Assembly (NCBI GenBank): GCA_964650645.1
Contig: CAZYUH010000001.1
Span: 411,032-475,031 of the forward strand
Source: an uncultured Candidatus Saccharibacteria bacterium
Lineage (GTDB): Bacteria; Patescibacteriota; Minisyncoccia; Phycocordibacterales; SBAW01
DNA: 64,000 nt
Direction of reading: 5' to 3'
Part shown: piece after piece, positions 13,593 to 41,910 of the stretch
Numbering within the stretch: position 1 is the stretch's first letter
Layout: every line of letters begins with the position of its first letter
The notes under the pieces: generated by a model
Told to the model about the DNA's origin: nothing
Database searches by the model: none
Seen by the model: only the letters and a program-made list of their open reading frames with translations
Program-made: the position numbers and the translations under genes

Positions 13593-13928
13593 GCTTAATG
13601 CGCAAAAAGCCTTATTTATAAACTCTTTTAGCCGAGATATCGGATAGGCTATACGAAAAATGCTTTTTAAATAAAGGAGTACTCGGTAATGCGATTTCAT
13701 GCTTTTTATCGGGTATGTCTTTTGAATGATTAGCGTCAATCGAAAGCGTGGCCGGTGCTAATTTTGGGCTTGATTGAGAGGGTGGCGCCGCGCTAACGCT
13801 GTTTTTATCCTTGCGCTTTTGCGGCTTATTTTCTTCACTTTTTTGACAGAAAAATAAAAAGCCCGGCTTAAAATTATTCATAACTCCGCACACGAACTTT
13901 CCGAGCAAACAAAAGATTTTTCGGCCCT

Positions 13929-19900: not shown

Positions 19901-22900
19901 CAGCACGGTACGCGGGATGGTCTCGGCCTCGGGCCCGCTCTCGTACAACTCCTCGACCGGCATCTTCTCCATCTTCCAGGCCGGCGCGGGCCAGGACGGC
20001 TACCTCTCGTCTGCCGACTGGTCCGCCTTCAACGGCAAGCTCTCCAGCTCATCCATCGACACCTCCACCGAGCTCGCGTCGCTCATCGGCGACGAGACCG
20101 GCACGGGCGCGCTCGTATTCGGCACGGGCGCGACGCTGGCTTCCACGACGCTGTCGGGCAGCACGCTGCTCTCGAATGCCACCACTACGAACCTCGCCAT
20201 CACCGGCGTTACGTCGTCCTTGCTGAAGACCCTGGCAAACGGAGCGGTCGTGCCCGCCGTCGCCGGCAGCGATTACCTGACCAGCGCCACTATCTACCAG
20301 TACCCGTTCCCGAACAACGCGACGTCGACCCTCATAGCGTTCAACGGCGGCATTACCGCCGCCGCCTCGACGCTGTCCTCCACGACGCTTTCCGGCAGCA
20401 CGCTCCTTTCCAACGCGACGACGACCTCGCTCGGCTTCTCGGGGCTCGCCTCGACCCTGCTTAAGACCAACGCGCAGGGGACGGTGGTCGCCGCGAACGC
20501 CGGCACCGACTACGAGAATCCGCTCACATTCTCGACGGGCCTCAGCCGCATCGGGGACGTGGTGTCCAACAGCGGCGTCACGTCGGCGACCGGCACCCTC
20601 AACCAGATCAGCGTCAGCGCGAATACCGGCAATATAACCTTCTCGCTCCCGTCGCTCGTCAATCTCACCAACCTCACGGTCGCTGCGGCCACCACGACGA
20701 ACTCGTTCACGTCCGGCGCGCTGAGCGCTTCGACGGCGCGCTTCGGCTCGACGGCCACCACGACTATCGACGCGGCGGGCAACCTCGCGGTCGCGGGCAC
20801 CTTCGACGGCGCGGGCCTCGCGTCCTGCAGCGGCACCGCCGACAAGCTCCTGTGGAACGCGGGCGTGTTCTCCTGCGGCGTCGATTCCGGTTCCGGCGGC
20901 GGCACCAGCGAGATAAACTGGACCTGGTTCAACGGCTCGGCGGTCCGCGTCTCGACCTCGACCAACCAGGTGCTCATCGGCACCAACGCCACCTCGACGC
21001 TCGCCAAGCTCGAGGTGGTGGGCGGCGTCTTTACCGACAATGCGACCTCCACCGCGAGCCTGTTCGGCGGCCGCATAACGGGCAACAGCGCGGCGTTCGG
21101 CACGACCGCGTCGACCACCATCGACGCGCTGGGCAACGTGGGCATCGGCTCGACGACGCCGTCGGCGCGCCTCGCGGTCGTGGGCGGAAACATACTGCAG
21201 ACCGCGTCCGGCGATCCCAAGCTGGTCGCTTCAAGCGCGCTCGGCCACCGTACCTATGCCACGGCCGTATCGGGCCGGTACGCCTATGTCGCCAACGAGA
21301 CCGGGGGCCTGCGCATCCTCGATATCTCGAACCCGGCGGCTCCGGTCGTGACCGGCTCGTTCGCGTACAACGGCGGGTCTTCGGCAGCTATATCCATAGC
21401 GGTCGCGGGCCAGTACGCGTACGTCGGCGACAACGCCATAGGCCTCGTTATCATCGATGTCTCCAACCCGGCCGCGCCCTCGGTCGTGAGCACGAGCGCT
21501 ATCGTCAACGATCCGTGGAACCTCGCGCTTTCCGGCAAGTACCTGTACGTGGCGGACGGCAATGCCAAGGCGCTCAAGATAATAGACGTCTCCAACCCGG
21601 CCGCGCCGGTGGTGGCCGGCTCTTTCGTCTCCGGCGGCTCGACCCAGCCGCAGGCCGTGGCGGTAGCGGGCAAGTACGCGTACATGAGCGACGCCTCGCT
21701 GGGCAACATATATATAGTAGACATCTCGAACCCCACGGCGCCCGCCCTGACCGCCACCTACGCATCGGGCGGCTCTCCGATGAGCCTGTACGCTTCGGGC
21801 AAGTACCTGTACGTGGCGGACCTCGTAAACGGCTTTTATTCGCTCAATGTCAGCAATCCCAATGCTACCCCGACGCTGGTCGGCAGCTATGCGGGCTCGC
21901 ACTACGGCGTAGCGGTCGCGGGCCAGTACGCCTACATCGCCAACGACGCGGGCCACGAGCTGACCGTGCTCGACCTTGCCAACCAGTCGAGCCCGGCGCT
22001 GGTGGGCGGCGTCGATGTCGGCGACGAGGCGCTCGGCATCACCATGGCGGGCAAGTACGCCTTCATCGCTGCCAACCTCAACGGCCTCGCGGTCGTCGAC
22101 GTGAACGGCGCGAGCTTCCCGGCCGCGAACATCGCGAGCCTCCAGAGCGGCATGGCGAACATCGCCGACGCGCTCACCGTGGGCGGCAATATATACGCCG
22201 GCGGCGGGCTCGATGTCGGCGTATCGGGCATCTACAGCCGCGGCACAATCGCCGCCTACGTCGCGAGCTCGACCGAGCTTAATCCCGTCGTGGCGACCTT
22301 CATGGGCGGCAACGTCGGGATAGGCACTACCTCGCCGTTCGCAAAGCTCTCGGTCGGCGGCAGCGGATTCTTCGGCGGCTCGCTCACCGCGAGCAGTATA
22401 ACCGCGAGCACGTCGGCCTCGCTCGCTTCGACGACGCTTGTAGGGAACACGCTCCTCTCTAACGCAACGACGACATCGTTTGCGATTTCCGGCATTTCGG
22501 GCGCGCTTCTTAAGACCCTCGCAAACGGCGCGGTCGTCCCGGCGGTGGCGGGCACCGACTACGCTTCGCCGTCGGATATCTTCGCCTACCCGTTCCCGTC
22601 AAACGCCACCACCACCCAGCTGGCGTTCAATGGGGGATTGAGCGCGACGACCATCACGGCGAACGCCGCGACCTCGACGTCGCTCTTTAGCGGCCGCGTC
22701 ACGGGCAACACGGCGAGCTTCGGCGCGACCGCGACCTCGTCGTTCTCGAGCAACGGCACGCTCAGCCTCGCGGGGCTCTCAAGCGCCCTGCTTTCCACAG
22801 ACGCCTCCGGCGCCGTCGTCGCTACCACTACGCTCTCCACTAACTACCTCTTCGGGCACCTCGGATTCATCAACGGCGTGGCGTTCAGCGCGGGCGGCAG

Positions 22901-25900
22901 CAGCATCATCACCGCCGCCTCCTCCACGCTCTTGGCGAACAACAATACCTTCAGCGGAACCAACACCTTCTCTAATATCATCACCGGCTCCGTGTCCGGC
23001 AATGCGGGGACCGCCACGGCCCTCCAGACCCCCCGCACCATCAACGGCGTCACCTTCGACGGCACCGGAAACATAGTGATTACTGCGGCATCCTCTACTT
23101 TGCTTGCAAACAACAACACGTTCAGCGGCACCAACATCTTCAGCAACACGATCAACGGCTCCATCACCGGCAACGCGGGCACGGTGACCAACGGCGTGTA
23201 CACCACCACCTTTGGCGGCCTGTTCGCGGGGCAGCTCGCGGGCACGACGACCGACGCGCTGGCGGAAGGCTCGGCCAACCTCTACTACACCCAAGCCCGC
23301 GCCACCGCGAACTTCATCGCGAACCTCGCGGGCACGTCGAGCGTCGCCTCCATCACGACGCTCCCGAACCTCTCCCTGCCGTCCTCGCAGGTGACGGGCC
23401 TGTTCGCGTATCCGTTCCCCAGCAACGCCACCACCACCTCCATCGCCTTCAACGGCGGCCTCACCGGCACGCTCACGGGCTCGCTCGTAGGCAACGCCTC
23501 CACCGCCACGGCCCTCCAGACCCCCCGCACCATCAACGGCGTCACCTTCGACGGCACCTCCAACATCACCGTAACCGCGGCCTCCTCCACGCTCTTGGCG
23601 AACAACAACACGTTCAGCGGCACCAACACGTTCTCAAATACCATCAACGGCTCCATCACCGGCAACGCGGGCACGGTGACCAACGGCGTGTACACCACGA
23701 CGTTCAACTCGCTCTTCGACCCGCGCTTCGTCACTCAGCTCGCGGCAACCTCCTCAATCGCGAGCATCACCACCTTGCCGAACCTCTCGCTCCCGTACTC
23801 CCAGCTCACGGGCACGCCCGCCATCGCGGGCTACCCGTTCGCAGGGGCAGGGAACTCGACCTCGACGCTGACCCAATTCAACGGCGGCCTGACCGCGTAC
23901 GCGAGCTCGACCATCGGCAACGGCACGGCAACCGGCGGCCTCACCGTCAGCGGTAATGCGACGACGACCGGCAATGCGTACATTGCCGGCAATCTAACCG
24001 CAGCCGGAACCGTGGCGGCAAACGGCGTATCCACGGCGATGATAAGGGACGCATCAAGCGTCAGCGCCTTGGATATAGCGAATAGGAGGCTGCTGGATTC
24101 CGGCACGGTCAATGCTCTGGATTTCAGCTCCGCTTCAAGCATCAAGCTCACTCAATACACTTCAAACGGCTTCCTCAAGACTTCAGGCGGCAATGGAACC
24201 TTGTCTGTCGATACGACGATATCGACATCTGGCGGCAATGTCGGCATCGGCACCACTAGCCCGTACGCAAAGCTTTCTGTCGCAGGCCAAGTCGTCGCGG
24301 CAAGCTTCGTGGGTACTACCACCGCTACCTCTACGCTTGGTGGTGGTATGAATATCGCCTCGGGCTGCTACGCCGTAAACGGCACGTGCCTCTCTGCGGC
24401 AAGCCTCGGCGCCTCCACCTTCGCCTACCCGTTCCCCTCGAACGCCACCACGACCCAGATCGCGTTCAACGGCGGCGCCACCTTTGCCGGCGCCACCACG
24501 ACCGCGCTCGCAGTGACCGGCTCGACCACCGTCTCCTCGGTCCTCAACGTCGGCGGCGTAATCAACGCCAACGGCGGCATCACCGCCGGTACGTACAACG
24601 CATCCGGCGCGTCATCGACCGTCCTGTCGCTTAGCGGCCAGGCGCTGCTCTCAGCCTCGAGTACCACCAGTTCCGTCTTCCTGGGGCTGAACTCGGGTGC
24701 GTTGAACCAGTCGACCGGCGTCTATAACAGCGGCCTCGGCGCCGGCGCGCTCGCTTCCAACACCACCGGTACCCGCAACAGCGCCTTCGGCTTCGCGACC
24801 CTCGTCTCCAACACCAGCGGCGCCGGCAACACCGCCGCGGGCTTCCAGTCCATGCAGTCAAACACTGTCGGCATTAATAACAGCGCCTTCGGCTACAATT
24901 CGCTCGCCACCAACAGCTACGGCGTCTACAACACCGCGGTCGGCTCCCATTCGCTTTTTGCAAATACTAGCGGCGTCTACAACACCGCCAGCGGCTACGC
25001 CTCCCTCGTCTTCAACAGCTACGGCACCTTCAATAGCGCCTTCGGCTCCCAGGCGCTCTACAACAACGGCAGCGGATCCTACAACAGCGCCTTCGGCTAC
25101 TTCGCGGGGAAGACCAACACTGTCGGCACTTCAACGACTCTGGTCGGCTCCTTCAGCGACGTCGCGGCGAACAATCTCTCCACTTCGACCGCCATCGGCG
25201 CCGGCGCCGTGGTTAGCGCGAGCAACTCCTTGGTTCTCGGCGGCCTGGGGCAGAGCAGCGTGCTCGCGGGCGTGGGCACGACGACGCCGTTCGCGCGCTT
25301 CAGCATCCAGGCGAACCCGACCGACTCCGTTCCCAATGCCATGCTCTTCGCCATCGGCTCATCGACCGCGAGCGCGACCACCACGCTCTTCTCGGTCTCC
25401 AACACCGGTTCCACTACCGCGCAGAACGGCATCAATATCGCCAACGGCTGCTACGCCGTAAACGGCGCCTGCCTCTCGGCGGCGACGTTCGGCGCGTCGA
25501 CCTTCGCCTACCCGTTCCCATCCAACGCCACCACCACCTCCATCGCCTTCAACGGCGGCCTCACCGGCACGCTCACGGGCTCGCTCGTAGGCAACGCCTC
25601 CACCGCCACGGCCCTCCAGACCCCCCGCACCATCAACGGCGTCACCTTCGACGGCACCGGAAACATAGTGATTACTGCGGCATCCTCTACTTTGCTTGCA
25701 AACAACAACACGTTCAGCGGCACCAACACGTTCTCCAACACCATCAGCGGCTCAATCACCGGCAACGCGGGCACGGTCACGAACGGCGTCTATACCACGA
25801 CCTTTGGCGGCCTGTTCGCGGGGCAGCTCGCGGGTACCACGACCGACGCGCTGGCGGAAGGCTCGGCCAACCTCTACTACACCCAAGCCCGCGCCACCGC

Positions 25901-28900
25901 GAACTTCATCGCCAACCTCGCGGGCACGTCGAGCGTCGCCTCCATCACGACGCTCCCGAACCTCTCCATACTCTCCTCGCAGGTCTCCGACCTGGCGACG
26001 ACGATCGGCGCCGCGTACCCGTTCGCGCTGGCGGGCAACGCGACCTCGACCCTGACGCAGTTCAATGGAGGCCTCACCGCGTACGCATCCTCGACCATCG
26101 GCAACGGCACCGCGGGCCTCACCGTCTCCGGCAACTCGACCACGACCGGCACCGCGTACTTCGTGGGCAACGTGGGCATCGGTACGACTTCGCCGTTTGC
26201 AGCGCTGTCGGTACAGGGCGCTTCATCGCAAGCCGCCGCGACAAATGCCCCTGTTGCCTTTTCGGTACTTGGCGGTACGGGCTCGACTACGGGCCTGGGA
26301 GGCGCAATTGCCCTTACTGGAGGCACTGGCGGCAATGGCGTTGGTGGTAGTGGCGGAGGCATTTCCCTGACAGGTGGAAATAGCGGAGGAGGCATAGCTT
26401 CTGCGGGAGGAACAGTCGCTCTTTCTGCAGGCAATGGAGGAGGCGCTACTCCCGGCGCCGGCGGCGCTTTGACGATCTCCGGAGGAATAGCTTCAGGAAA
26501 CGCCGGAGGCATCGTAATTAGTTCGGGAAGCGCCAATATTGCCGCATCAAACACCTCCGGCGGAAACATAACCATGATAGCGGGCAACGGCGGCGGTGCA
26601 GGTTCAGTAGGTGCTGGAGGAAGCTTCACTTTTAACAGCGGCAGCGGCAATGTGGGCTCTGCCTCGCAGGCGGCCGGCAGCTTTACCTTTAACGGCGGCA
26701 GCGCCGGAGCCTCTAAGCAGGGAGGCAGCTTTGCCTTTAACGGAGGCGCCGGCTCGACAACCGGCAACGGCGGTGATTTCTCGATTACCGGGGGTACGGG
26801 CGGCAACTCGGCAGGATCGCGCGGCGGCAACATCACTTTGAATCCTGGCGCAGCAGGGACGAGCGGCGCGGTTGGCAATGTGCTGCTGGCAACCTTAAAC
26901 GGCAATGTCGGCATAGGCACCACCAGCCCGTACGCCAAGCTTTCTGTCGCTGGCTCGGTCGTAGCCGCCAGCTTCGTGGGCACCACCACCGCAACCTCTA
27001 CGCTCGGCGGCGGCATGGACATCGCTACCGGCTGCTACGCCATCAACGGAACCTGCCTCTCGGCGGCAAGCCTCGGCGCCTCGACCTTCGCGTACCCGTT
27101 CCCCTCGAACGCGACCTCCACCTCAATCGCGTTCAGCGGCGGGCTGACCGGCACGCTCACGGGCTCCCTGGTGGGCAACGCCTCCACCGCCACGGCGCTG
27201 CAGACCGGCCGCGCGATCAACGGCGTCACCTTCGACGGCACTTCCAACATCACCGTCACCGCGGCGTCCTCGACGCTCCTCGCCAACGACAACACGTTCT
27301 CGGGCACCAACACGTTCAGCAACACCATCAGCGGCTCCATCACCGGCAACGCCGGCACCGTCACCAACGGCGTATACACGACCACGTTCAACGGCCTGTT
27401 CGACAATCGCCTCTCGGCCTCGTCGTCGATCGCGGGCATCACGACGCTGCCGAACCTCTCGCTGCCGGCTTCGCAGGTCACCGGGCTTGCGGCCTACCCG
27501 TTCCCGTCCAACGCCACCACCACGCAGATCGCGTTCAACGGCGGGCTGACGGCGTATGCCTCGACCACTATCGGCAATGGCACCGCGATCGGCGGCCTTA
27601 CCATCAGCGGCGGCGCGACGACGACGGGCACCGCGTACTTCGCGGGCAATGTGGGCATCGGCACCTCTTCTCCCTACCAGGCGCTCTCCGTGGTCGGCAG
27701 CACTACGCTCCAGGCCAATGCTGCGGCGGCTTATTCCTGGACCAACGCCTCGCAGCCGGAGGGCGTGACGCTCCGCATCGGAGCCGATGGCTCTAGCGTA
27801 GCCGGCCTCCTGATACAGGGCTCCAATAGCGGGGCAGGCATAACCGATTACCTGTCCGTATACAATCGCTTCGGCACGAGGCTCTTTGGCGTGACCGATA
27901 GCGGGGTCGGTATCGGAGGCAATACCAGGCTGACCGTCGGCCCGGGCTTTGCATCCGGCGCATCGCTAAACCCGACCGGCGTAAACGACTACAGCATATT
28001 CGGCTCTTCGGCGACAAGCACGCCTGCTCAGCTCATATGGGACGCGCGCCGAGGCACGTTCTACGAAGACAGGACCACCCCGATCCTGCGCTTTGCGGGC
28101 AATGTTGGAGGAGGCAATAGCCCGATTATCGGGGAATCCGTCGGAGGCATAAACATACTCAATGCCAGCACGACGCGCGGACTTTCCTTCGCCAGCTACG
28201 CGTCGAGCACCGGCCAGTTCATCGAGAACTTCCGCATACTCTCGACCGGCAACACCGGCTTCGGCACCTCCAGTCCTTTCGCCAAGCTCGCCGTGCAGGC
28301 CGGCGACGGCGATACGGCGACGACGCTCTTCGCTATCGGCTCTTCGACCGCGAGCGCGACCACCACGCTCTTCTCGGTCTCCAATACCGGCTCGACCACC
28401 ATCCAGAACGGCGTCAACATCGCCGGCGGCTGCTACGCCGTCAACGGCACCTGCCTTTCGGCGGCAACGTTCGGCGCCTCGACCTTCGCCTACCCGTTCC
28501 TCAGCAACGCCACATCGACGACGCTCACGTTCTCGGGAGGACTGCTCGCGACCGCGTCCTCGACCTTCTCGGGCCAGCTCAATCTGGGCGGCACTGCGGC
28601 GAATATCGCGCTCGGCTCCAACTACCTCTCCGGCGACGGCGGCGACGAGGGCGTATTCGTGAACTCCGGCGGCGACGTCGGCATCGGCACCAACGGCCTC
28701 ATTTCAAGCCACGTGCTGACAGTGGCGGGCAACCAGTACCTCTCCGGCGGGCTTGGCGTAGGCGGCGGCAATACGGTGCCGGGTTCGGCGCACATCTACG
28801 GCTCTGCCGGCGATGCGACGTCGCTCACGATTGATGCGCCCAACGCGTCCAGCGCGTCGGCGCTGAACATAAGCGGGCCGTCGAGCGGGAAGGCGTTCGC

Positions 28901-31900
28901 CATTACGGCGACGGGCGAGACCCTGGCGCGCGGCATGTTCTACGTCGACGGCTCGTACGGCATCGGCCCGGGCGGCAACTCGTACTCGCGCGACACGTTC
29001 ATATCGCGCAGCGCGACCAGCACGCTCTTGGTGTCATCGGACATGGCAAGCGGCGCCGCGAACCTCATCGTGACGGGCAACATCGGCGTCGGCACCACCT
29101 CGCCGTACGCGAAGCTCTCGGTGACCGGAGACGCGGTGCTCTCCGGATCGAGCCCGACGCTGACCCTGCACGACACCGGCGGCAACTCGTTCAATACCAT
29201 CCAGAACGCGGGCGGCGGACTGCAATTCAATACCGGGTCGGGCAACAGCATCGTCTTCCAGCAGGCGGGCGTCGAGGCTGCGCGCTTCGTGACGGGCTCG
29301 CGCAATTTCGGCATCGGCACTTCCTCGCCGTCCCAGGCGCTCTCGGTCGCGGGCAACGGCTACGTTTCCGGCGGCTTCGGCATCGGCATGCCTCCGGCAG
29401 CGGCGGGCGGGCTGTACTTCAACCGCGCGGGCAACGACCCGTTCTTCTCGTGGTACGAAAGCGGGGTAAACGTCGGCCAGATACGCGCCGATGCGACCCG
29501 CGGCGGCATCTACTTCGCGGATACGACCGGCGGGACGACGTATTTCCAGGTAAACACCAGCGGAGCCGGGGCGGGCAACGTCGGCGTCGGCACCACCACG
29601 CCGGGCTCCTTGCTCGCCATAGGCAACACCGGCGGCATCAACTTCACGACCGCCACCTCGACCTTCAATACGACCGGCGGCATCAACATCAACTCGGGCT
29701 GCTTTGCCATGAACGGCACCTGCATTACCGCGGGCGGCGGAGGAGGCGTCTCGCTGAGCGCCGCCAATACGTGGACCGCGCTGCAGACCTTCCAGTCCGG
29801 CCTCCTCTCCCAGGCGTCCTCCACCTTCACCGGCGCGCTCACCCTCAGCGGCGGCATCGTCAATTACGCGGCCAACTCGACCTCGACCGTCCCGAACAAC
29901 GCGGCCTACGCGTGGACCATCGCCACCTCCTCGACCGCCCAGCCGCTCTTTGCTATAGACACCACCTCCGGCTCCGAAAGCGTCTCTTTGGGCGCGGCCG
30001 GCGCGGATGTCTACATCGGCGACGCCGGCTCCTCGCCTGATCTCGTGTTCGAGAACAGCGGCACGATAAAGACCGCGAGCGGCGGCACGCTCACGATCGG
30101 CGACGGCTCCGACATCGTCAACTTCGGCGTCAACGTCGGCATCGGCTCGACGACGCCCGGCTCGCTGCTTTCCGTCGGCGACACGAACGGCATCAACTTC
30201 ACGACCGCCACCTCGACCTTCTCCTCCACCGGCGGCATCAACATCGCTTCCGGCTGCTTCGCGGTCAACGGTACGTGCATCACCGGTGGGGGCGGCGGCA
30301 GCTCGGCGTCCTCCACATTGCTCGCTGACTTCAACACCTTCACCAACCTGCAGAGGTTTAACGGCGGCCTGCTCTCGCTCGCGTCCTCGACCATCGGCAA
30401 CGGCAATGCGGGCCTCACCATTTCCGGCAACTCGACCACCACGGGCAACTCGCTGGTCAGCGGCGGGCTCAACGTGGGCACGGTCCCGGTCGCGCCGGTC
30501 ACGGGCGGCATCTACCTCCAGCGCACGACCAATCCGTTCATCTCGTTCTACTACGGCTCGACGCAGGCGGGCCAGCTGCGCGCCAACTCGACGAGCCAGC
30601 TCTCGCTGACCGATCCTACCGGCAACAGCCCGTACCTCTCCATCAACACGTCCGGCGCGGCGGCGGGCAACGTCGGCGTCGGCACCACATCGCCGTTCGC
30701 CAACTTCGCGGTGCAGAAGAACTACGGCTCCACGAACACCACGCTGTTCGCCGTCAGCTCCTCGACCAACAGCGGCGGCACCACGGCGACCACGCTCTTC
30801 AGTGTCGACAGCTCCGGCGTCGCCACGGTGGGCAACGAGTCGGGCGCGGGCGACGCGAACTTCCAGTTCGCCTCCGACGCCAATGCCTGGTCGGTCGGCT
30901 ACAAGTCCTCCGACAAGTCGTTCAACATAGCGTCGTCCACCAACTTCTCGGGCACCGCGGCGCTCTCCATAGCCAAGAACGGCAACGCCACCTTCACGGG
31001 CTCGGGCGGCACCTGCACCATAAACGGCTCGGGCGAGTGCACTTCCGACATCCGCCTCAAGACGGACGTCGCGACGACGACCGGCCAGGACGCGCTCGCG
31101 AAGCTCGCGAAGCTCGACGCCATCACCTACACCTGGTCCGATCCGAAGCTCGACCAGGCGCAGCGCCTCGGCGTCGTCGCCCAGCAGGTGCAGGAGGTGT
31201 TCCCGCAGCTGGTGGGCTCGACGACCGTCAGCTTCATGGGCGTGACCGGCACCTACCTTACTGTCGACTACGGCGGCCTCGCGGCGCCGCTCATCGCCGC
31301 CGTCAACGAGCTCAACCTGCGCACGGGCTTCCTCGCGACGACGACCGCGACCTCCACTCCGGATGAGTTGGCGGACGGCCCGTTCAAGGCCGCGTCCGAT
31401 TGGCTGAAGTCGGCGCTCGCTTCGGGCCTCGACGCCATCCAGGGCGTCGCGGACATCGGCGTGCGCAACGTGGGCGCGGCGATCTACGCGGCGGCGGGCG
31501 CGTTCAACGAGGTGTTCGCGCAGACTATTACCGCCGACACGGTCAAGGCCAAGCAGTTGTGCCTCGAGGATGTCTGCATCACCAAGACTGAGCTCCAGAA
31601 CCTGCTCAACCAGCAGCACTCATCGGGCGGCGGGAGCGGCGGCAACGGCGGCGGGGGAGGGTCGGTGCCGCCGCCGGCGCCCGAACCTGCGGGCCCCGAG
31701 CCGGAGCCGCAGGCGTCGTCCACGCCGGAAACGGCGCCCGAGCCCGAGGCGCCGTCGCCTGGCGAGGCGTCTCCCGGGCCTGAGGCGCCTGCCCCCGAAC
31801 CGGACGCTCCCGCGCCTGAAGCGACTCCGGAGCCCGAACCGGAACCCGAGGATCCTGCTCCGCAGGATGCGCCCGCTCCCGCTCCGGCAAGCGCTCCGGC

Positions 31901-31934
31901 CGCAGGAGGGGAGGGCGGCGCGGTGCAGCCGTAA
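13929..31934 (+). CDS. giant (6001 aa) membrane-anchored fibrous surface protein built from phage tail-fibre-like repeats; contains LVIVD beta-propeller, glycine-rich block and C-terminal intramolecular-chaperone (peptidase S74-like) domain
   Basis: Single uninterrupted ORF; N-terminal HTH-like domain then TM (AAALLISMLLGGAAYASSAAF); about 17 modules beginning AYPFPSNATTT..FNGG; Phage_fiber_2-like motif GNASTATALQTPRTINGVTFDGTSNITVTAASSTLLANNNTFSGTNTF; C-terminal SDIRLKTDV..ITYTW..GVVAQQVQEVFPQLV; Pro/Glu tail. Confidence 0.9.
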   Translation: MTSSKKLFSKTGETLLNARKAAVLLECAPDYVSRLCREGKIEGVRHQGQWYIDPKSLESFRAGRDAARLARSEMLSAERRNESKAFARANGKAEGKPAQGIMSRIPAIPLSRHAAAALLISMLLGGAAYASSAAFSAARAQPEALSASAGRIESPFFSTVSFSFESVWRAIASLFAPSRDVAVAPSMQADRTLAAQPASPAAQPAVVAATTTQTFVTNTYPVVERTIERTVERAVPAQAADLGGFVTYDFLNAQIDGVYRSLSRRGSGGIADFSSLTAADIPALNYLPLTGGTLTGALSVSATSTLAGIALNADCSAYNNGGKLTTDSSGNVVCDNDTAGSGSGTPGGSTGQVQYNDAGDFGGEAGFTYDEGANRLTVSFASTTGITADYASTTNLVVSGVSNALLKTVNGVVVPAVAGTDYQAAGNYATFAYPFPSNATTTSIAFNGGLTGALTGNASTATALQTGRTINGVTFDGTQDITVTAASSTLLANNNTFSGNNTFSNTITGSITGNAGTVTNGVYTTTFGGLFAGQLAGTTTDALAEGSVNKYYTDSLVQSYLNGVDKGFFFSTTSAAYQLSVLDKGYFFSTTSAAYNLSTIDKGYFFSTTSADYLLSGKNYATFAYPFPSNATTTQLALNGGLTAPSATIAYASTTAITATTASTTNLVISGIATGSTQCLQINSSGTVSGTGSACGSGGGGSITQIGPAGQMQSGTSITLATSTSGSDFTITAAADTITFNFPIASASNTGKLTAADWSTFNDKISSTSLSAGAGIAYNPATGVITNTIGYPFPSNATTTSIAFNGGLTGTLTGSLVGNASTATALQTPRTINGVTFDGTSNITVTAASSTLLANNNTFSGTNTFSNTITGSITGNAGTVTNGVYTTTFNSLFDPRFASSFAGTTTDALAEGSTNLYYTQARATANFIANLAGTSSVASITTLPNLSLPSSQVTGLFAYPFPSNATTTQLAFNGGATFAGATTTALAVTGSTTVSSTLNVGGVINASGGVIGNVTGSLVGNASTATALETPRTINGVTFDGTQDITVAAASSTLLTDNNTFSGKTLLANATTTNLAVTGVTSSLLKTLSNGAVVAAVAGTDYVANTSGDWTGTFDGQEGSYYLNAANLANFGVPFYNFFSATTTSALAEGSNLYYTDERVDDRVGALLQAGSGVNLTYDDGSDTLTISATGGGGGGTDVNWTYFNGSTIRPATSTNQVLVGGTSTSTLVSPFAKLGVLGGASIDYASTTGITASYASTTDLVISGIPNGILKTVNGVVTAATAGVDYLTSGSSFAYPFPSNATTTQLAFNGGATFAGATTTALAVTGSTTVSSTLNVGGVINANGGVIGNVTGSLTGNASTATALQTPRTINGVTFDGTSNITVTAASSTLLANNNTFSGTNTFSNTITGSITGNAGTVTNGVYTTTFGGLFAGQLAGTTTDALAEGSANLYYTQARATANFIANLAGTSSVASITTLPNLSLPSSQVTGLFAYPFPSNATTTQLAFNGGLSATTITADAATSTSLFGGRVTGSTASFGATATSSFSSAGALTLANLSNAVLAVNAQGQVVATSSIGMSQLTGTLGVPNGGTGSTTLGGLLIGNGTGAIASAAVTGPLSFSGTTLSIAQATGAQSGYLSSADWSTFNGKVSSSSLSSANGYLTYNGSTGVFTASTSPTYAAATSTAFRTTSLTIGTLTGLLKASSGAVAAAVAGTDYENPLTFSYPLQRTVNAVSLAFGTTTSNTWAGTQTFTNAPRLGTLTGLVGANNGTLYQISTSTSFVTSLTAGAGISLSGATGAVTVTNAIGYPFPSNATTTQIAFNGGATFAGATTTALAVTGSTTVSGVLNAGGVVNANGGVTAAGASTIASTTLTGRTLLSNATSSSIYTPVLGVNGEYFTNLTGAGLQNVGGALTLDTAGDWTGTFDGQEGSYYLANSFSTTSAAYFSSLGLAFSTTSSDYWLSQKTTGNLAEGSNLYFTNARADARIAAATSTVRGMVSASGPLSYNSSTGIFSIFQAGAGQDGYLSSADWSAFNGKLSSSSIDTSTELASLIGDETGTGALVFGTGATLASTTLSGSTLLSNATTTNLAITGVTSSLLKTLANGAVVPAVAGSDYLTSATIYQYPFPNNATSTLIAFNGGITAAASTLSSTTLSGSTLLSNATTTSLGFSGLASTLLKTNAQGTVVAANAGTDYENPLTFSTGLSRIGDVVSNSGVTSATGTLNQISVSANTGNITFSLPSLVNLTNLTVAAATTTNSFTSGALSASTARFGSTATTTIDAAGNLAVAGTFDGAGLASCSGTADKLLWNAGVFSCGVDSGSGGGTSEINWTWFNGSAVRVSTSTNQVLIGTNATSTLAKLEVVGGVFTDNATSTASLFGGRITGNSAAFGTTASTTIDALGNVGIGSTTPSARLAVVGGNILQTASGDPKLVASSALGHRTYATAVSGRYAYVANETGGLRILDISNPAAPVVTGSFAYNGGSSAAISIAVAGQYAYVGDNAIGLVIIDVSNPAAPSVVSTSAIVNDPWNLALSGKYLYVADGNAKALKIIDVSNPAAPVVAGSFVSGGSTQPQAVAVAGKYAYMSDASLGNIYIVDISNPTAPALTATYASGGSPMSLYASGKYLYVADLVNGFYSLNVSNPNATPTLVGSYAGSHYGVAVAGQYAYIANDAGHELTVLDLANQSSPALVGGVDVGDEALGITMAGKYAFIAANLNGLAVVDVNGASFPAANIASLQSGMANIADALTVGGNIYAGGGLDVGVSGIYSRGTIAAYVASSTELNPVVATFMGGNVGIGTTSPFAKLSVGGSGFFGGSLTASSITASTSASLASTTLVGNTLLSNATTTSFAISGISGALLKTLANGAVVPAVAGTDYASPSDIFAYPFPSNATTTQLAFNGGLSATTITANAATSTSLFSGRVTGNTASFGATATSSFSSNGTLSLAGLSSALLSTDASGAVVATTTLSTNYLFGHLGFINGVAFSAGGSSIITAASSTLLANNNTFSGTNTFSNIITGSVSGNAGTATALQTPRTINGVTFDGTGNIVITAASSTLLANNNTFSGTNIFSNTINGSITGNAGTVTNGVYTTTFGGLFAGQLAGTTTDALAEGSANLYYTQARATANFIANLAGTSSVASITTLPNLSLPSSQVTGLFAYPFPSNATTTSIAFNGGLTGTLTGSLVGNASTATALQTPRTINGVTFDGTSNITVTAASSTLLANNNTFSGTNTFSNTINGSITGNAGTVTNGVYTTTFNSLFDPRFVTQLAATSSIASITTLPNLSLPYSQLTGTPAIAGYPFAGAGNSTSTLTQFNGGLTAYASSTIGNGTATGGLTVSGNATTTGNAYIAGNLTAAGTVAANGVSTAMIRDASSVSALDIANRRLLDSGTVNALDFSSASSIKLTQYTSNGFLKTSGGNGTLSVDTTISTSGGNVGIGTTSPYAKLSVAGQVVAASFVGTTTATSTLGGGMNIASGCYAVNGTCLSAASLGASTFAYPFPSNATTTQIAFNGGATFAGATTTALAVTGSTTVSSVLNVGGVINANGGITAGTYNASGASSTVLSLSGQALLSASSTTSSVFLGLNSGALNQSTGVYNSGLGAGALASNTTGTRNSAFGFATLVSNTSGAGNTAAGFQSMQSNTVGINNSAFGYNSLATNSYGVYNTAVGSHSLFANTSGVYNTASGYASLVFNSYGTFNSAFGSQALYNNGSGSYNSAFGYFAGKTNTVGTSTTLVGSFSDVAANNLSTSTAIGAGAVVSASNSLVLGGLGQSSVLAGVGTTTPFARFSIQANPTDSVPNAMLFAIGSSTASATTTLFSVSNTGSTTAQNGINIANGCYAVNGACLSAATFGASTFAYPFPSNATTTSIAFNGGLTGTLTGSLVGNASTATALQTPRTINGVTFDGTGNIVITAASSTLLANNNTFSGTNTFSNTISGSITGNAGTVTNGVYTTTFGGLFAGQLAGTTTDALAEGSANLYYTQARATANFIANLAGTSSVASITTLPNLSILSSQVSDLATTIGAAYPFALAGNATSTLTQFNGGLTAYASSTIGNGTAGLTVSGNSTTTGTAYFVGNVGIGTTSPFAALSVQGASSQAAATNAPVAFSVLGGTGSTTGLGGAIALTGGTGGNGVGGSGGGISLTGGNSGGGIASAGGTVALSAGNGGGATPGAGGALTISGGIASGNAGGIVISSGSANIAASNTSGGNITMIAGNGGGAGSVGAGGSFTFNSGSGNVGSASQAAGSFTFNGGSAGASKQGGSFAFNGGAGSTTGNGGDFSITGGTGGNSAGSRGGNITLNPGAAGTSGAVGNVLLATLNGNVGIGTTSPYAKLSVAGSVVAASFVGTTTATSTLGGGMDIATGCYAINGTCLSAASLGASTFAYPFPSNATSTSIAFSGGLTGTLTGSLVGNASTATALQTGRAINGVTFDGTSNITVTAASSTLLANDNTFSGTNTFSNTISGSITGNAGTVTNGVYTTTFNGLFDNRLSASSSIAGITTLPNLSLPASQVTGLAAYPFPSNATTTQIAFNGGLTAYASTTIGNGTAIGGLTISGGATTTGTAYFAGNVGIGTSSPYQALSVVGSTTLQANAAAAYSWTNASQPEGVTLRIGADGSSVAGLLIQGSNSGAGITDYLSVYNRFGTRLFGVTDSGVGIGGNTRLTVGPGFASGASLNPTGVNDYSIFGSSATSTPAQLIWDARRGTFYEDRTTPILRFAGNVGGGNSPIIGESVGGINILNASTTRGLSFASYASSTGQFIENFRILSTGNTGFGTSSPFAKLAVQAGDGDTATTLFAIGSSTASATTTLFSVSNTGSTTIQNGVNIAGGCYAVNGTCLSAATFGASTFAYPFLSNATSTTLTFSGGLLATASSTFSGQLNLGGTAANIALGSNYLSGDGGDEGVFVNSGGDVGIGTNGLISSHVLTVAGNQYLSGGLGVGGGNTVPGSAHIYGSAGDATSLTIDAPNASSASALNISGPSSGKAFAITATGETLARGMFYVDGSYGIGPGGNSYSRDTFISRSATSTLLVSSDMASGAANLIVTGNIGVGTTSPYAKLSVTGDAVLSGSSPTLTLHDTGGNSFNTIQNAGGGLQFNTGSGNSIVFQQAGVEAARFVTGSRNFGIGTSSPSQALSVAGNGYVSGGFGIGMPPAAAGGLYFNRAGNDPFFSWYESGVNVGQIRADATRGGIYFADTTGGTTYFQVNTSGAGAGNVGVGTTTPGSLLAIGNTGGINFTTATSTFNTTGGININSGCFAMNGTCITAGGGGGVSLSAANTWTALQTFQSGLLSQASSTFTGALTLSGGIVNYAANSTSTVPNNAAYAWTIATSSTAQPLFAIDTTSGSESVSLGAAGADVYIGDAGSSPDLVFENSGTIKTASGGTLTIGDGSDIVNFGVNVGIGSTTPGSLLSVGDTNGINFTTATSTFSSTGGINIASGCFAVNGTCITGGGGGSSASSTLLADFNTFTNLQRFNGGLLSLASSTIGNGNAGLTISGNSTTTGNSLVSGGLNVGTVPVAPVTGGIYLQRTTNPFISFYYGSTQAGQLRANSTSQLSLTDPTGNSPYLSINTSGAAAGNVGVGTTSPFANFAVQKNYGSTNTTLFAVSSSTNSGGTTATTLFSVDSSGVATVGNESGAGDANFQFASDANAWSVGYKSSDKSFNIASSTNFSGTAALSIAKNGNATFTGSGGTCTINGSGECTSDIRLKTDVATTTGQDALAKLAKLDAITYTWSDPKLDQAQRLGVVAQQVQEVFPQLVGSTTVSFMGVTGTYLTVDYGGLAAPLIAAVNELNLRTGFLATTTATSTPDELADGPFKAASDWLKSALASGLDAIQGVADIGVRNVGAAIYAAAGAFNEVFAQTITADTVKAKQLCLEDVCITKTELQNLLNQQHSSGGGSGGNGGGGGSVPPPAPEPAGPEPEPQASSTPETAPEPEAPSPGEASPGPEAPAPEPDAPAPEATPEPEPEPEDPAPQDAPAPAPASAPAAGGEGGAVQP
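21220..22150 (+). other. LVIVD-repeat beta-propeller segment inside the giant ORF
   Basis: Six to eight repeats such as YAYVANETGGLRILDISNPAAPVV, YAYVGDNAIGLVIIDVSNPAAPSV, YLYVADGNAKALKIIDVSNPAAPVV, YAFIAANLNGLAVVDVNGAS. Confidence 0.7.
26220..26900 (+). other. glycine-rich block (GGxGG-type, not collagen Gly-X-Y) inside the giant ORF
   Basis: GGAIALTGGTGGNGVGGSGGGISLTGGNSGGGIASAGGTVALSAGNGGGATPGAGGALTISGG... Confidence 0.8.
31010..31330 (+). other. intramolecular chaperone autoproteolytic domain (peptidase S74 / tail-spike C-terminal chaperone-like)
   Basis: TCTINGSGECTSDIRLKTDVATTTGQDALAKLAKLDAITYTWSDPKLDQAQRLGVVAQQVQEVFPQLVG..TVDYGGLAAPLIAAVNELN (S-D-x-R-L-K and IAQEV-like motifs). Confidence 0.7.
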
Positions 31935-31974: not shown

Positions 31975-33861
31975 ATGAAGCGGCATTCTTGTTTCAATGC
32001 GGGTACGCGCCTGGGCACTCGGCACGGCATAAAAAGAATCCTCCCGCTGTTCGGTGTTGCGGCATTTTTTGCCGTGTTCCTTGTGGCGCCCCACTCGGCG
32101 CAAGCAGCGCTTTCCTATGTCGGCTCCGCAGAAGGGAGCGGCATAAATACTACGGTTAATGTGAGCCTCACAGGTCTTTCTTTGCAACAGGGCGATCTGG
32201 TAATCGTCTTGAACGGATGGGGGGAGACCTCGAACGGTGATCCTGGCGTGGGTACGTCTGGATATACCGAGGTGGCTGATCTGTATGCGAATGATTCTGT
32301 TGATGCCAACCTTTCCGTCAGCTGGAAGATCATGGGTGCGTCGCCCGATTCGTCCGTGTCCTGCAACTCAAACGGCACGACATTCGGCGCATCGGCGTGC
32401 CTGGTGCACGTATGGCGCGGGGCGGACGCGACAGTGCCCATGGATGTGACTCCCACTACGGCTACAGGTGTCGACTCGGCCGTCTTCGACAGCCCTTCCA
32501 TTACGCCGGTAACTGCGGGAGCGGTCGTGCTTACGCTCGGCTTGAGCACCGCCACGGGCGCCAGCGGGGACTCGTCGATAACCGCTCCGTCGGGGTATTC
32601 CAATCAGGCCGATATAAATGCAAACGGAAACACGAGGTCATCCCAATCCGGCATCGCATCCAAGGCGTGGAGCGGCTCAGGTGCCGAGAACCCGGGCGCG
32701 TGGAGCAATATAACCACTGACACATTCAATTCCTGGGCTGCTGTTACGCTCGCTATACGCCCCGCTGCCGGACCGGGAGGGGGCGGGACCATATTCCTCA
32801 CGTCGGGCACGACGTGGCAGGTGCCTTCCGATTGGGATTCTTCTAATAACACCATAGAGGTTATAGGCGGCGGGGGAGGCGGAGATACCCCGAGCGACAC
32901 GGTCTATTCCGCGGGCGGCGGCGGCGGCGCATACTCGAAAATCACGAACGCGACGCTTACGCCCGGCGCGACAGTCGCCATTGCTGTGGGTGCCGGCGGG
33001 TCGGGCGGTACTACTCCGACTGCCGGCGGCGACACGTACCTGTGCAACTCGCCCAGCAACTGCGCGACCATTGGCGGCAGCGCGGTCATCGTCGGCGCGA
33101 AAGGCGGCGGCGCGCCTACCGGGTCCGGGTTCCCGACCGGCGGTGCCGGGGGTGCTGCGGCCAGCGGAGTGGGGACGGTCAAGAACTCGGGCGGCGCAGG
33201 CGGCACGTCTTCGTTAGGCAACCCGGGCTCCGGCGGCGGCGGCGCAGGCGGGCCGCGGGGCGCGGGCGGCGCGGGTGCGGATGACGCCAATACCACGGGC
33301 TCCGGAGGCGGCGGCGGCGGCGGCGCGGGCGGCGGCGGGTCCGGAACGAATGGCGCGGCCGGTACGGCTGCCGCAAATAGCTTAGGCGGCGCAGGCGGCG
33401 CAGGCGGCAACAATGCCGCGGGAGCGGGCTCCGGCGGCGCCGGTACGGCTAGCGGAGGAACGGGATCTGCGGGTACGGCCGGAGGAGGCGGCGGAGGAGG
33501 CGGCGGAAAAAACGGAACGAATGCCGGAGCCGGAGGCGCCGGAGGCGCTGGTACGGACTGGGACGCGACGCATGGTGCGGGCGGCGGAGGCGGAGGAGGC
33601 GGAGGCAGCAACGACGCTACCGTCAATGGTTCGGCGACCGGCGGCGCCGGCGGCCTGTACGGCGGCGGAGGAGGCGGAGGCGGCGGAACGTCCGCAGGCA
33701 ACGGCACCAACGGCGCGGGCGGCAACGGCGCGCAGGGGATCATCGTCATCACCTACACGGCAGCAGGAGGCGGGTCCGGCACGCCCTCGCGCCGCATGCG
33801 GCTCTTCGAAGGATTCAAAATAAAGCTCATTAGCGGCAAGATAAAAGTGCTCCCGATATGA
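31975..33861 (+). CDS. secreted glycine-rich protein (TSGTxW..IEVIGGGGGG / GIIVITYT family)
   Basis: Signal peptide ..FFAVFLVAPHSAQA; module IFLTSGTTWQVPSDWDSSNNTIEVIGGGGGGD..GGDTYLCNSPSNCATIGGSAVIVGAKGGG..long GGxGG tracts..GIIVITYT. Confidence 0.8.
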   Translation: MKRHSCFNAGTRLGTRHGIKRILPLFGVAAFFAVFLVAPHSAQAALSYVGSAEGSGINTTVNVSLTGLSLQQGDLVIVLNGWGETSNGDPGVGTSGYTEVADLYANDSVDANLSVSWKIMGASPDSSVSCNSNGTTFGASACLVHVWRGADATVPMDVTPTTATGVDSAVFDSPSITPVTAGAVVLTLGLSTATGASGDSSITAPSGYSNQADINANGNTRSSQSGIASKAWSGSGAENPGAWSNITTDTFNSWAAVTLAIRPAAGPGGGGTIFLTSGTTWQVPSDWDSSNNTIEVIGGGGGGDTPSDTVYSAGGGGGAYSKITNATLTPGATVAIAVGAGGSGGTTPTAGGDTYLCNSPSNCATIGGSAVIVGAKGGGAPTGSGFPTGGAGGAAASGVGTVKNSGGAGGTSSLGNPGSGGGGAGGPRGAGGAGADDANTTGSGGGGGGGAGGGGSGTNGAAGTAAANSLGGAGGAGGNNAAGAGSGGAGTASGGTGSAGTAGGGGGGGGGKNGTNAGAGGAGGAGTDWDATHGAGGGGGGGGGSNDATVNGSATGGAGGLYGGGGGGGGGTSAGNGTNGAGGNGAQGIIVITYTAAGGGSGTPSRRMRLFEGFKIKLISGKIKVLPI

Positions 33862-34483: not shown

Positions 34484-36547
34484 ATGAGGTGGGGCAATGG
34501 CTACATAGGCGCGTTCGTCGCCGCGTGCGCGTGCGCATTCCTCCTGCCTGCCTGTGCGCATGCGGCGACGGTGTTCCTCACGTCGGGCACGTCGTGGAGC
34601 GTGCCGTCCGATTGGGACTCGGCGAGCAACACCATTGAAGTCATAGGCGGCGGCGGGGCGGGAGAAGATATAAACGGCGGAGGCGGCGGAGGAGGCGGCT
34701 ATACCAAGGCAACGAACGTGACGCTGACTCCCGGCTCGACGGTCGCGTATGCTGTCGGCGCGGGCGGGCTCACCAGCAGCGCGAGCGGCGGCGATACGTA
34801 CCTATGCAACAGCACCTCAAACTGCGCCGATATTAACGGCACGGCGGTCGTTGCGGGCGCCCGGGGCGGCGCGGGGTCTGCCGGAACCGGCGGCGGCGCG
34901 GGTGGCGCGCTGGGCGTGCCTGTATCGGGCACGGTGCGCTACGCGGGCGGCGCCGGCGGCGACGGGAATACCGACGGCGAGACCGGCGGCGGAGGAGGCG
35001 GCGCGGGCGGCCCTTTCGGCGGCGGCGCTAATGGCGGCGGCGGCGCGGGCGGCACCGATGACGGAGGCGGAGGCGGAGGCGGCGCCGGCGGCGGCACGAA
35101 CGGCGCCGCCGGAACCGGCCATAGCGGCACGGGCGGCAACGGCGGCGACAACCACAACGGCGCCGGCGGCGGCACGGGCGGCAACAGCGCGTCCGGCGGC
35201 ACGGACGGAGGCGGCGGAGGCGGCAGTTGCCGGTTCGGCGCGGACGGCGGCGGCGGCACCGAGTGGGACGCGACGCACGGCTCGGGCGGCGGCGGAGGCG
35301 GCGGAGGCTACGTCACCGACTGCAGCGGCACCAACAGCTCGGGCGGCGCCGGCGGCCTGTACGGCGGAGGAGGCGGAGGCGGCGGCGAGAATACGGCGAC
35401 CGACAACGGCGGCGCGGGCGCGCAGGGCATTATCGTCATAACGTACACGCCGGCCAGCGCTCCCGTTGGCCGCATCGTGCGCCTGAAGGGCGGCGTGCGG
35501 TTGGTAGGCGGCGTGCGGTTCGGCGGCACCTCGCCCGTCACGACGTACGGCGGGGGCGGAAGTCCGTCGTGCGATGCGGCATTTACCGATATTGGCGGCG
35601 GGCAGTGCCGTCTGTTCGTGACGTCGCTCGCGGCGACCACCTTCAGCGTGCCTCCCAACTGGACCTCGACGAATACCATAGAAACTATCGGCGGCGGCGG
35701 CGGAGGCTCGAACTACCCGACGGGCGGCGGAGGCGGCGCGTATAGCGCGTCCACCAACGTTTCGTTGACGCCGGGCGCGACGGTCGGCCTCAAGGTCGGC
35801 GGAGGCGGCGCGGGCGGGCCTACCGGCGGCTCGTTTACCGCAGGGGGTGCTGGCGGCGACACGTACGTATGCAACTCGACCAGCAACTGCGCGAGCATTG
35901 CGGGCAGCGCGGTCATCGTAGGCGCCAAGGGCGGCGGGGGCGGCGCGACGACCGCCGTCCTGACAAGCGGCGGCGCGTCTGGGAGCGGCGTGGGCGCAAC
36001 CAAGGTAAGCGGCGGCAACTCCCCGGCGCCATCGACCAACGGCTCCGGCGGCGGCGGCGCAGGTGGGCCGCAGGGCGCTGGCGCTGCGGGCGGGCAAAGC
36101 ACTGGCAACGGCGGCGCGGGCGGAGGCGGCAACGGCGGCGGCAGCGCGGGCGCAGGCACGGGTTCTGATAATGGAGGCAACGGAGGCAATAATTTCGGCG
36201 GCACCGGCAGCGGCGCGGGCGGCGTCGCATCGGGCGCTGTGGGCAGTCCGGGCGCCGCAGGTACGAACGGCGGCGGAGGCGGCGGAGGAAGCCGACCTTT
36301 TTCAGACAATAACATCGTCGGCGGCGCCGGAGGCAATGGCACCGAGTGGGACGCGACGCACGGGTCGGGCGGCGGCGGAGGCGGCGCCGGCGGCACGAAC
36401 GCCGCTGGTGTTACGGGCATTTTCGGCGGCGCCGGGGGGCTCTACGGAGGCGGTGGCGGCGCCGGCGGCTACAACACATCCGACGGCATAGGCTTCAAGG
36501 GCGGCGACGGCGGGCAGGGGATTATCGTCATAACCTACACGCTCTAA
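34484..36547 (+). CDS. secreted glycine-rich protein carrying two tandem copies of the TSGTxW..GIIVITYT module
   Basis: Signal peptide ..LLPACAHA; VFLTSGTSWSVPSDWDSASNTIEVIGGGGAG..GAQGIIVITYTP then LFVTSLAATTFSVPPNWTSTNTIETIGGGGGGS..GGQGIIVITYTL. Confidence 0.8.
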   Translation: MRWGNGYIGAFVAACACAFLLPACAHAATVFLTSGTSWSVPSDWDSASNTIEVIGGGGAGEDINGGGGGGGGYTKATNVTLTPGSTVAYAVGAGGLTSSASGGDTYLCNSTSNCADINGTAVVAGARGGAGSAGTGGGAGGALGVPVSGTVRYAGGAGGDGNTDGETGGGGGGAGGPFGGGANGGGGAGGTDDGGGGGGGAGGGTNGAAGTGHSGTGGNGGDNHNGAGGGTGGNSASGGTDGGGGGGSCRFGADGGGGTEWDATHGSGGGGGGGGYVTDCSGTNSSGGAGGLYGGGGGGGGENTATDNGGAGAQGIIVITYTPASAPVGRIVRLKGGVRLVGGVRFGGTSPVTTYGGGGSPSCDAAFTDIGGGQCRLFVTSLAATTFSVPPNWTSTNTIETIGGGGGGSNYPTGGGGGAYSASTNVSLTPGATVGLKVGGGGAGGPTGGSFTAGGAGGDTYVCNSTSNCASIAGSAVIVGAKGGGGGATTAVLTSGGASGSGVGATKVSGGNSPAPSTNGSGGGGAGGPQGAGAAGGQSTGNGGAGGGGNGGGSAGAGTGSDNGGNGGNNFGGTGSGAGGVASGAVGSPGAAGTNGGGGGGGSRPFSDNNIVGGAGGNGTEWDATHGSGGGGGGAGGTNAAGVTGIFGGAGGLYGGGGGAGGYNTSDGIGFKGGDGGQGIIVITYTL

Positions 36548-41904: not shown

Positions 41905-41910
41905 TACGCC

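Follow-up and report, generated by a model that had tools for sequence, protein, structure and literature searches.

The DNA analysed here is a stretch of 64,000 nucleotides, in the following called the window, from an uncultured Candidatus Saccharibacteria bacterium (assembly GCA_964650645.1, contig CAZYUH010000001.1, positions 411,032 to 475,031 of the forward strand). It encodes an O-antigen-ligase-like protein, SecA, Obg, GatB, GAPDH, ribulose-phosphate epimerase (Rpe), a type IV pilin, a split transketolase and a class II aldolase. Between gatB and the GAPDH gene lies a single giant open reading frame (ORF) of 6001 codons plus a stop codon, the product of which is rich in Thr, Gly, Ala and Ser (54%) and carries near its C-terminus a domain of the Peptidase_S74 family, also termed the intramolecular chaperone autoprocessing (ICA) domain. 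Such domains have been characterized in phage fibres, phage spikes and the eukaryotic protein MYRF. A preliminary description of the DNA had taken the end of this ORF for a self-cleaving chaperone of the phage type, and the peptides cited there indeed form the C-terminus of the 6001-residue product: TSDIRLK comprises residues 5705-5711 and GVVAQQV residues 5748-5754 (Table 1). The start of the segment, given as 31010, lies one base ahead of the codon boundary, as the plus-strand reading frame begins at 31011. The acidic Pro/Glu tail was likewise seen correctly and falls within the last 106 residues, and the C-terminal fragment of “~300” residues measures 296, counted from Ser5706.

The end of the giant protein carries a genuine Peptidase_S74/ICA domain. 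Residues 5706-5762 fit Pfam PF13884 (Peptidase_S74, “chaperone of endosialidase”) at profile positions 1-57 out of 58, and the score of 53.6 bits exceeds the curated cut-off of 22 (E=2.8e-14). Since the Pfam family exists and the domain is canonical, it represents a further member of a known family. A word-index search returned three homologues only, and an exhaustive HMMER search was needed; phmmer with residues 5694-5901 as the query retrieved 6434 relatives at E<=1e-3, and the conservation figures given below are based on 150 homologous domains taken from the top matches. The giant protein and all six frames of the window hold this one S74 domain, and neither the family hidden Markov model with filters off nor a six-frame scan revealed extra or degenerate copies in the giant protein or the rest of the window. 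Searching the PDB with the single sequence yielded mainly low-complexity noise from the Pro/Glu tail, with MyRF at only E=0.9, and a profile was therefore needed for the comparison. A profile of 28 domains matched the tail fibre 8jov (8.5e-16), the MyRF ICA domain 7dc3 (4e-15) and S16 gp37 6f45 (6e-13), and more weakly GA-1 3gud (1e-7), the T5 L-shaped fibre 8hqz (2.4e-7) and endoNF 3gw6 (0.25). The SDxRxK and GxIAQxV signatures are in register across these alignments, and the profile covers the 8jov, 7dc3 and 6f45 chains up to the end of the helix. In NCBIfam, neither end of the giant protein nor the hypothetical genes next to it had a match.

All residues needed for cleavage in MyRF and endoNF are nearly invariant among the 150 homologues. 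Ser5706 is conserved in 100%, Asp5707 in 99%, Arg5709 in 94% and Lys5711 in 99% of the domains, and within the second signature Gly5748, Ala5751 and Pro5759 reach 100% and Gln5752 99%. This second signature, G-x-[IV]-A-Q-x-V...P, lines the “cutter” ring and is aligned to GVIAQEV of MyRF. In the alignments, Ser5706 falls on residue 1 of the chaperone chain that GA-1 releases (3gud) and on the S587A position of MyRF (7dc3, within an A-D-L-R-A-K motif), and Lys5711 falls on the Lys of 3gud and on MyRF K592; the proposed Ser/Lys dyad hence coincides with the catalytic positions of both proteins. MyRF is cut between P586 and S587, and S587 and K592, which are indispensable, are the equivalents of endoNF S911 and K916 (PMC8326128). 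Cleavage of MyRF takes place in the trimer only, and mutations of the R and Q residues that align with Arg5709 and Gln5752 disturb it; the characterized members with an intact dyad all cleave (PMC8326128). Because Ser5706 aligns with the Ser of the MyRF P586-S587 bond and with the start of the released GA-1 chain, the cut in the giant protein is predicted at Thr5705-Ser5706, from where it would free 296 residues. The earlier proposal of cleavage “at the Ser” is thus sound as regards the catalytic residue, and by alignment the predicted position is refined to the bond on its N-terminal side. Homology also leads us to expect that the giant protein would trimerize and cleave itself.

The fold agrees with the sequence. 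In an AlphaFold2 monomer model of residues 5690-5905, built from a 28-row alignment, the S74 core, made up of strands (model residues 42-90) and a helix (93-116), has a pLDDT (predicted local confidence) of 81-95. About 65 residues of low confidence follow, and then a beta-hairpin and a helix at model residues 187-208 (pLDDT ~81-84). Foldseek matched this model at E<=0.001 in the PDB to the MyRF ICA 7dc3 chains only (E=2.6e-6, target TM 0.68); endoNF 3gw6 and GA-1 3gud came next at E=8e-3 to 4e-2, and the remainder was noise. Predicted viral structures gave 288 matches at E<=1e-3. Where those in the top 50 carry a name, it is that of a tail fibre, baseplate or neck-appendage protein or of one annotated as S74/ICA; most of the viral alignments span only ~100-120 columns, corresponding to the core without the extension that follows it. 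The predicted fold thus matches ICA-domain structures only, and profile, dyad, second signature and fold, i.e., every test of Peptidase_S74 membership that could be run, speak for the chaperone identity suggested before.

Table 1. Features of the giant gene and its surroundings (positions in the window).
Feature	Position	Strand	Basis or remark
Syntenic block SecA-(DsbD-like)-Obg-GatB-small HTH gene-giant S74 gene-GAPDH-Rpe-split transketolase	6511-42903		shared with L007, L014, L015
Small helix-turn-helix (HTH) gene	12629-13501		directly upstream of giant gene
AT-rich spacer, 427 nt	13502-13928		ahead of giant gene
Terminator-like hairpin and T run	13560-13592		within spacer
Giant ORF, 6001 aa + stop	13929-31934	+	dispersed internal DNA repeats leave S74 region uncovered
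N-terminal HTH, residues 15-63, predicted cytoplasmic	13971-14117	+	HTH_17 E=1.5e-5, 25.6 bits
Sole hydrophobic transmembrane (TM)-like segment, ~residues 114-135	14268-14333	+	Kyte-Doolittle: single peak >1.6 in whole protein
Dispersed direct DNA repeats, 180-300 nt	15279-27544		7-8 copies, 78-96% identity
Seven LVIVD repeats (beta-propeller), ~residues 2435-2720	~21240-22140		Pfam E=2.3e-59
Cys5696...Cys5704 pair (GGTCTINGSGEC), directly upstream of predicted scissile bond	31014-31040	+	conserved in 53% and 69% of 150 domains
TSDIRLK; predicted scissile bond Thr5705-Ser5706, nucleophile Ser5706 (31044-31046), general base Lys5711 (31059-31061)	31041-31061	+	conservation, alignment
Peptidase_S74 match, residues 5706-5762	31044-31214	+	Pfam PF13884
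Full ICA domain (beta core + long C-terminal helix), residues 5706 to ~5805	31044-31343	+	profile, AlphaFold pLDDT 81-95, Foldseek
GVVAQQV, residues 5748-5754; counterpart of MyRF GVIAQEV (I637, Q639)	31170-31190	+	7dc3 alignment
Thr-rich linker + predicted helices, residues 5806-5875	31344-31553	+	pLDDT 42-61; conservation weak, confined to CPR subfamily
QLCLEDVCITKTELQNLLNQ: Cys5878-x4-Cys5883 beta-hairpin, then helix	31554-31613	+	pLDDT ~81-84
Gly run, then acidic Pro/Ala/Glu low-complexity tail, residues 5896-6001	31614-31931	+	composition; stop codon 31932-31934
Two secreted Gly-rich proteins	31975-33861, 34484-36547		weak Gly_rich_2 matches
Type IV pilin-like gene	40381-40959		N_methyl motif
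Split transketolase (two genes)	41020-42903		
Further candidate surface proteins	45873-48485, 48942-50366, 51794-54451		
tRNA	63775-63847		

The S74 domain is attached to a protein with an unusual build. A Lys/Arg-rich stretch precedes the only TM-like segment, which is therefore read as a signal-anchor, and the membrane anchor is followed by ~5,570 residues of phage-tail-fibre-like repeats with paired cysteines. All 24 cysteines of the protein fall into 12 pairs with a spacing of 5-19 residues, including C5696/C5704 and C5878/C5883. Profiles of PHROG tail-fibre families reach ~100 residues upstream of the predicted cut and also hit the internal repeats. Further blocks consist of spike-like repeats and of Gly-rich sequence, and head-repeat-like NSA(F/L)G motifs at ~residues 3590-3740 match a PHROG tail-spike family. 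Judging from its sequence, the giant protein is probably an exported fibre with its N-terminus inside the cell, held by the signal-anchor and fastened by local disulfides.

Several regions within the fibre are conspicuous in their own right. The motif GC(Y/F)A(V/I/M)NG(T/A)C occurs six times (residues 3480, 3841, 4369, 4835, 5258 and 5443), and the LVIVD repeats lie mid-fibre in a region that also matches phrog_22523, a family without assigned function in PHROG. The dispersed DNA repeats encode a tail-fibre-like unit, “TINGVTFDG...NNNTFSG...GNAGTVTNGVYTTTF”. Recombination may act on these repeats, which do not include the S74 domain, and they may also cause errors in the assembled length of the gene; the giant gene may accordingly have been mis-sized, while its single-copy C-terminus is unaffected.

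The preliminary description had termed the S74 domain C-terminal, which is true in that it lies near the end, but not at the extreme C-terminus, as another 196 residues (5806-6001) come after it, part of which form a conserved module. Within this extension, Cys5878 and Cys5883 are invariant in all 30 aligned relatives. The hairpin/helix module that they belong to occurs in 61 of 152 scanned proteins, a few of which (e.g., P0002) show no S74 domain and may in some cases be fragments, and it had no match in Pfam, NCBIfam or the PDB. The last 106 residues consist of P (29%), A (19%), G (16%) and E (14%) to a large part, lack Lys and Arg and bear a net charge of -18. A near-identical relative (P0001, 93% over 232 residues) has the same folded part save one substitution at its third residue; its other differences, three indels and a few substitutions, all fall inside the Gly/Pro/Glu tail, the DNA of which contains short repeats of period 3, 9 and 12. 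Other relatives possess Pro/Asp/Glu tails of similar composition, or Ig-like PF16403 domains in place of a tail. By composition and variation, the tail behaves as a disordered, fast-evolving acidic spacer. A C-terminal membrane or wall anchor was not apparent, the highest 19-residue hydropathy past residue 5700 being 1.13 and no LPXTG-type signal being visible.

The giant S74 gene is a cellular, chromosomal gene of an ultra-small bacterium of the Candidate Phyla Radiation (CPR)/Patescibacteria type. The order Obg-GatB-small HTH gene-giant S74 gene recurs on three other contigs, L007 (a Minisyncoccia metagenome-assembled genome, MAG), L014 and L015, and in the latter two GAPDH, epimerase and transketolase genes again follow downstream. 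The housekeeping proteins are mostly 50-74% identical to their counterparts on these contigs (Rpe 31%), and the giant-gene products are 2797 (L007), 2621 (L014), 5473 (L015) and 6001 (window) residues long; the synteny therefore defines a conserved chromosomal slot that is occupied by a hypervariable giant gene. The earlier assignment to the phage-type S74 family is borne out for the domain, but does not extend to a virion-protein setting, since the host protein is chromosomal, membrane-anchored and found in a CPR-type bacterium. In the GTDB species set, the closest relatives of the C-terminal region stem from MAGs labelled, by their submitters, Candidatus Saccharibacteria (52% identity) and Minisyncoccia. 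Ten relatives are called “hypothetical protein” or are nameless in their sources, and the gene of one relative, P0007, adjoins rpsP.

The small gene directly upstream of the giant gene encodes an HTH of the same kind, which a Pro-rich linker joins to a TM segment at the C-terminus. Its HTH is homologous to that at the N-terminus of the giant protein, which also is combined with a TM segment, and the pairing of small HTH gene and giant gene is kept in relatives (L014 5269-6261; L007 1983-2153). At the N-terminus of P0007 and of P0021, the HTH is present twice. The spacer between the two genes of the window contains a terminator-like hairpin, and the giant gene thus probably has its own promoter.

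Some relatives harbour several S74 domains in one polypeptide, namely P0006 (L015 8001-24422, at least four), P0005, P0022, P0010 and P0012. After each of these S74 domains come a “TLCLGGDCRSSWP” Cys hairpin and then a segment similar to the start of the fibre at the N-terminus of the same protein (Y/F-D-L-G-S-P-x-N). Such an arrangement suggests a polyprotein of fibre units, which the S74 domains might cut apart.

Among known systems, the chaperones of endoNF (3GW6) and the GA-1 neck appendage (3GUD) share PF13884, the S-D-x-R-x-K and G-x-x-A-Q-x-V signatures in register and, by Foldseek, the fold, although the sequence similarity of endoNF is weak, as the profile score shows. These are virion proteins of ~1,000 residues or fewer, which fold in the cytoplasm and bear the domain at the very C-terminus. 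In contrast, the giant protein is cellular, far longer and anchored in a membrane, its S74 domain is not terminal, and its neighbours are housekeeping genes instead of phage structural genes. Among the long fibres, S16 gp37 (6F45) and the putative tail fibre 8JOV are among the best profile matches and T5 8HQZ is a weaker one, and PHROG families for long or L-shaped fibres also match upstream of the cut and in the internal repeats. Compared to these phage fibres, the giant protein occurs in a non-phage context, is several-fold longer and has in addition the LVIVD propeller, the paired cysteines, the Cys hairpin after the domain and the Pro/Glu tail.

The closest structural match is the ICA domain of MYRF/MrfA (7DC3), also the second-best profile match. 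MYRF resembles the giant protein in being a membrane protein of the cell in which a DNA-binding-type domain and a TM segment occur together with an ICA domain away from the terminus. However, the giant protein does not follow the domain order of this membrane-bound transcription factor: MYRF is arranged as DNA-binding domain-ICA-TM, and cleavage frees the DNA-binding domain, whereas the order here is HTH (15-63)-TM (~114-135)-fibre-ICA (5706-5805). Cleavage therefore cannot free the HTH and would fall on the other side of the membrane; a MYRF-like release of the HTH is ruled out by the TM segment between HTH and ICA domain. The trimeric autotransporter adhesins YadA and Hia offer a functional analogy only. 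They are long, repetitive, trimeric bacterial surface fibres, the assembly of which is driven by a C-terminal domain, as is proposed for the giant protein, yet the latter has no beta-barrel anchor, implies no outer membrane, is anchored N-terminally and has as its C-terminal domain an S74 protease instead of a translocator.

We consider it likely that the giant protein is a membrane-anchored cellular fibre with a true S74/ICA domain that undergoes trimer-dependent self-cleavage at Thr5705-Ser5706. The N-terminal signal-anchor would hold the protein in the cytoplasmic membrane, with the small HTH inside the cell and the ~5,570 residues of tail-fibre-like modules, stabilized by short-range disulfides, outside. 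Three chains would then join via their C-terminal ICA domains, as modelled on endoNF, phage fibres and MyRF, and the joined domains would nucleate the folding of the upstream trimeric fibre and set its register. In the trimer only, Ser5706, activated by Lys5711, would cut the Thr5705-Ser5706 bond. The cut would free a fragment composed of the ICA core, the helical linker, the disulfide hairpin/helix module, the Gly run and the acidic Pro/Glu tail, and would expose the distal tip of the fibre, which is the point farthest from the membrane anchor.

Several observations weigh against this interpretation. The HTH_17 score stays just below the Pfam cut-off of 27 bits, while the homologous N-terminus of P0007 reaches 48.9 bits. 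The proposed topology is deduced from two properties, hydropathy and cysteine pairing. The structure model is that of a monomer with a pTM (predicted global score) of 0.53, and its residues 148-179 have a pLDDT <50. With ~24 residues, the helix that follows the beta core is short next to the 36-residue coiled coil that is said to drive trimerization in MyRF (PMC8326128). Finally, a partly conserved stretch of 196 residues after the domain departs from the phage paradigm, and in relatives whole Ig-like domains or more fibre units come after S74; such a long downstream part is odd for a disposable chaperone.

The downstream part leads to the alternative that survives best, a serious variant of the cleavage model, which we nevertheless hold only tentatively: cleavage occurs, and the 296-residue fragment is itself a functional product, either a cap that is retained non-covalently or a released trimeric factor. 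By analogy, the multi-S74 relatives would be polyproteins cut into several fibre units. The invariant Cys-x4-Cys hairpin/helix favours this alternative, as does the fact that the C-terminal fragment of MyRF stays in the membrane. Moreover, 13 proteins contain at least two S74 domains (P0006, with its four or more, sits in the orthologous slot), and the 152 S74 domains of the top matches are followed by a median of ~144 residues, 25 of them by >300. However, the list of the top 150 is skewed by a query that contained the extension, and the tail is of low complexity with indels between near-identical strains, as is typical of a spacer. In addition, conservation and model confidence of the helical linker are both poor, and the module, matching nothing in Pfam, NCBIfam or the PDB, allows no function to be assigned.

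It is less probable, and in our view unlikely, that the S74 domain serves for trimerization and registration only and stays attached without cleavage, in which case the extension and the tail would still belong to the tip of the mature fibre. The conserved extension, and the Ig-like PF16403 domain or further fibre found there in relatives, suggest that the downstream part is not waste, and the literature searched holds no cleavage data for bacterial (non-phage) S74 proteins. Yet the near-invariance of the catalytic residues argues against a non-cleaving domain, as purifying selection is unlikely to maintain a dyad that is never used; the characterized members with an intact dyad all cleave, and the released GA-1 chain begins at the very Ser that aligns with Ser5706.

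That the gene encodes a phage or prophage tail fibre, or is a recent phage insertion in which the domain acts as in virions, is highly improbable. The C-terminal region and the internal repeats do match many PHROG tail-fibre families, and the structural neighbours are phage fibres. On the other hand, no capsid, portal, terminase or tail-tube families were found among the ORFs scanned across the 64-kb window, and the flanks are made up of SecA, Obg, GatB, GAPDH and pentose-phosphate genes. The homologous giant gene lies in the same chromosomal slot on three other contigs, the N-terminus consists of an HTH and a membrane anchor, and IMG/VR contributes two weak relatives only, with 35-41% identity confined to the S74 core. 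On gene context and synteny, a phage or prophage origin is rejected. A chance or low-complexity artefact of a T/G/A/S-rich giant ORF can practically be dismissed: the noisy single-sequence PDB search was its sole encouragement, and it is refuted by the convergence of Pfam, profile-PDB and Foldseek matches with residue conservation over a part of the protein that is not of low complexity.

The S74 domain itself thus belongs to a known family, and its cellular setting is unusual and uncharacterized. The literature searched contained no study of a bacterial cell-surface protein with an S74/ICA domain and no link between S74/PF13884 and CPR bacteria. CPR bacteria rely on being physically attached to other cells, and to our knowledge hardly any of their giant “hypothetical” proteins has been explained. 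Against this background, the cleavage model makes a precise prediction, i.e., a trimer-dependent cut at Thr5705-Ser5706 as a route to a giant phage-fibre-like surface filament in a CPR bacterium. The combination of a fixed genomic slot and a hypervariable gene suggests a host-interaction determinant, and the giant protein may help the cell to attach to others. In the multi-S74 relatives there are hints of polyprotein processing, and this would be a new function for the S74 domain.

These threads can be joined in a wider and rather doubtful scenario, according to which a core chromosomal locus of this lineage of Patescibacteria took over the phage S74 domain for a hypervariable, anchored fibre of 2,600-6,000 residues, with S74 as a maturation switch and a functional C-terminal product. 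If its parts were true, the fibre might be the organelle by which an episymbiont reaches and holds its host, and the C-terminal product would comprise the disulfide hairpin module together with a Pro/Glu tail or Ig-like domains. The polyprotein of the multi-S74 relatives would be cut into several fibre units, and through the conserved cytoplasmic HTH the fibre could be linked to gene regulation.

The two Gly-rich proteins encoded immediately after the giant gene share the motif GAQGIIVITYT near or at their C-termini. The GC skew is ~-0.1/-0.2 across the giant gene and flips to ~+0.12 at these Gly-rich genes. The further candidate surface proteins include two paralogous Cys-rich secreted or anchored proteins, which have no Pfam match and share N-terminal “YTTISW...” modules, and an 885-residue Kelch-repeat protein. 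A single tRNA gene is found in the window, and nearly all of its genes are encoded on the plus strand.

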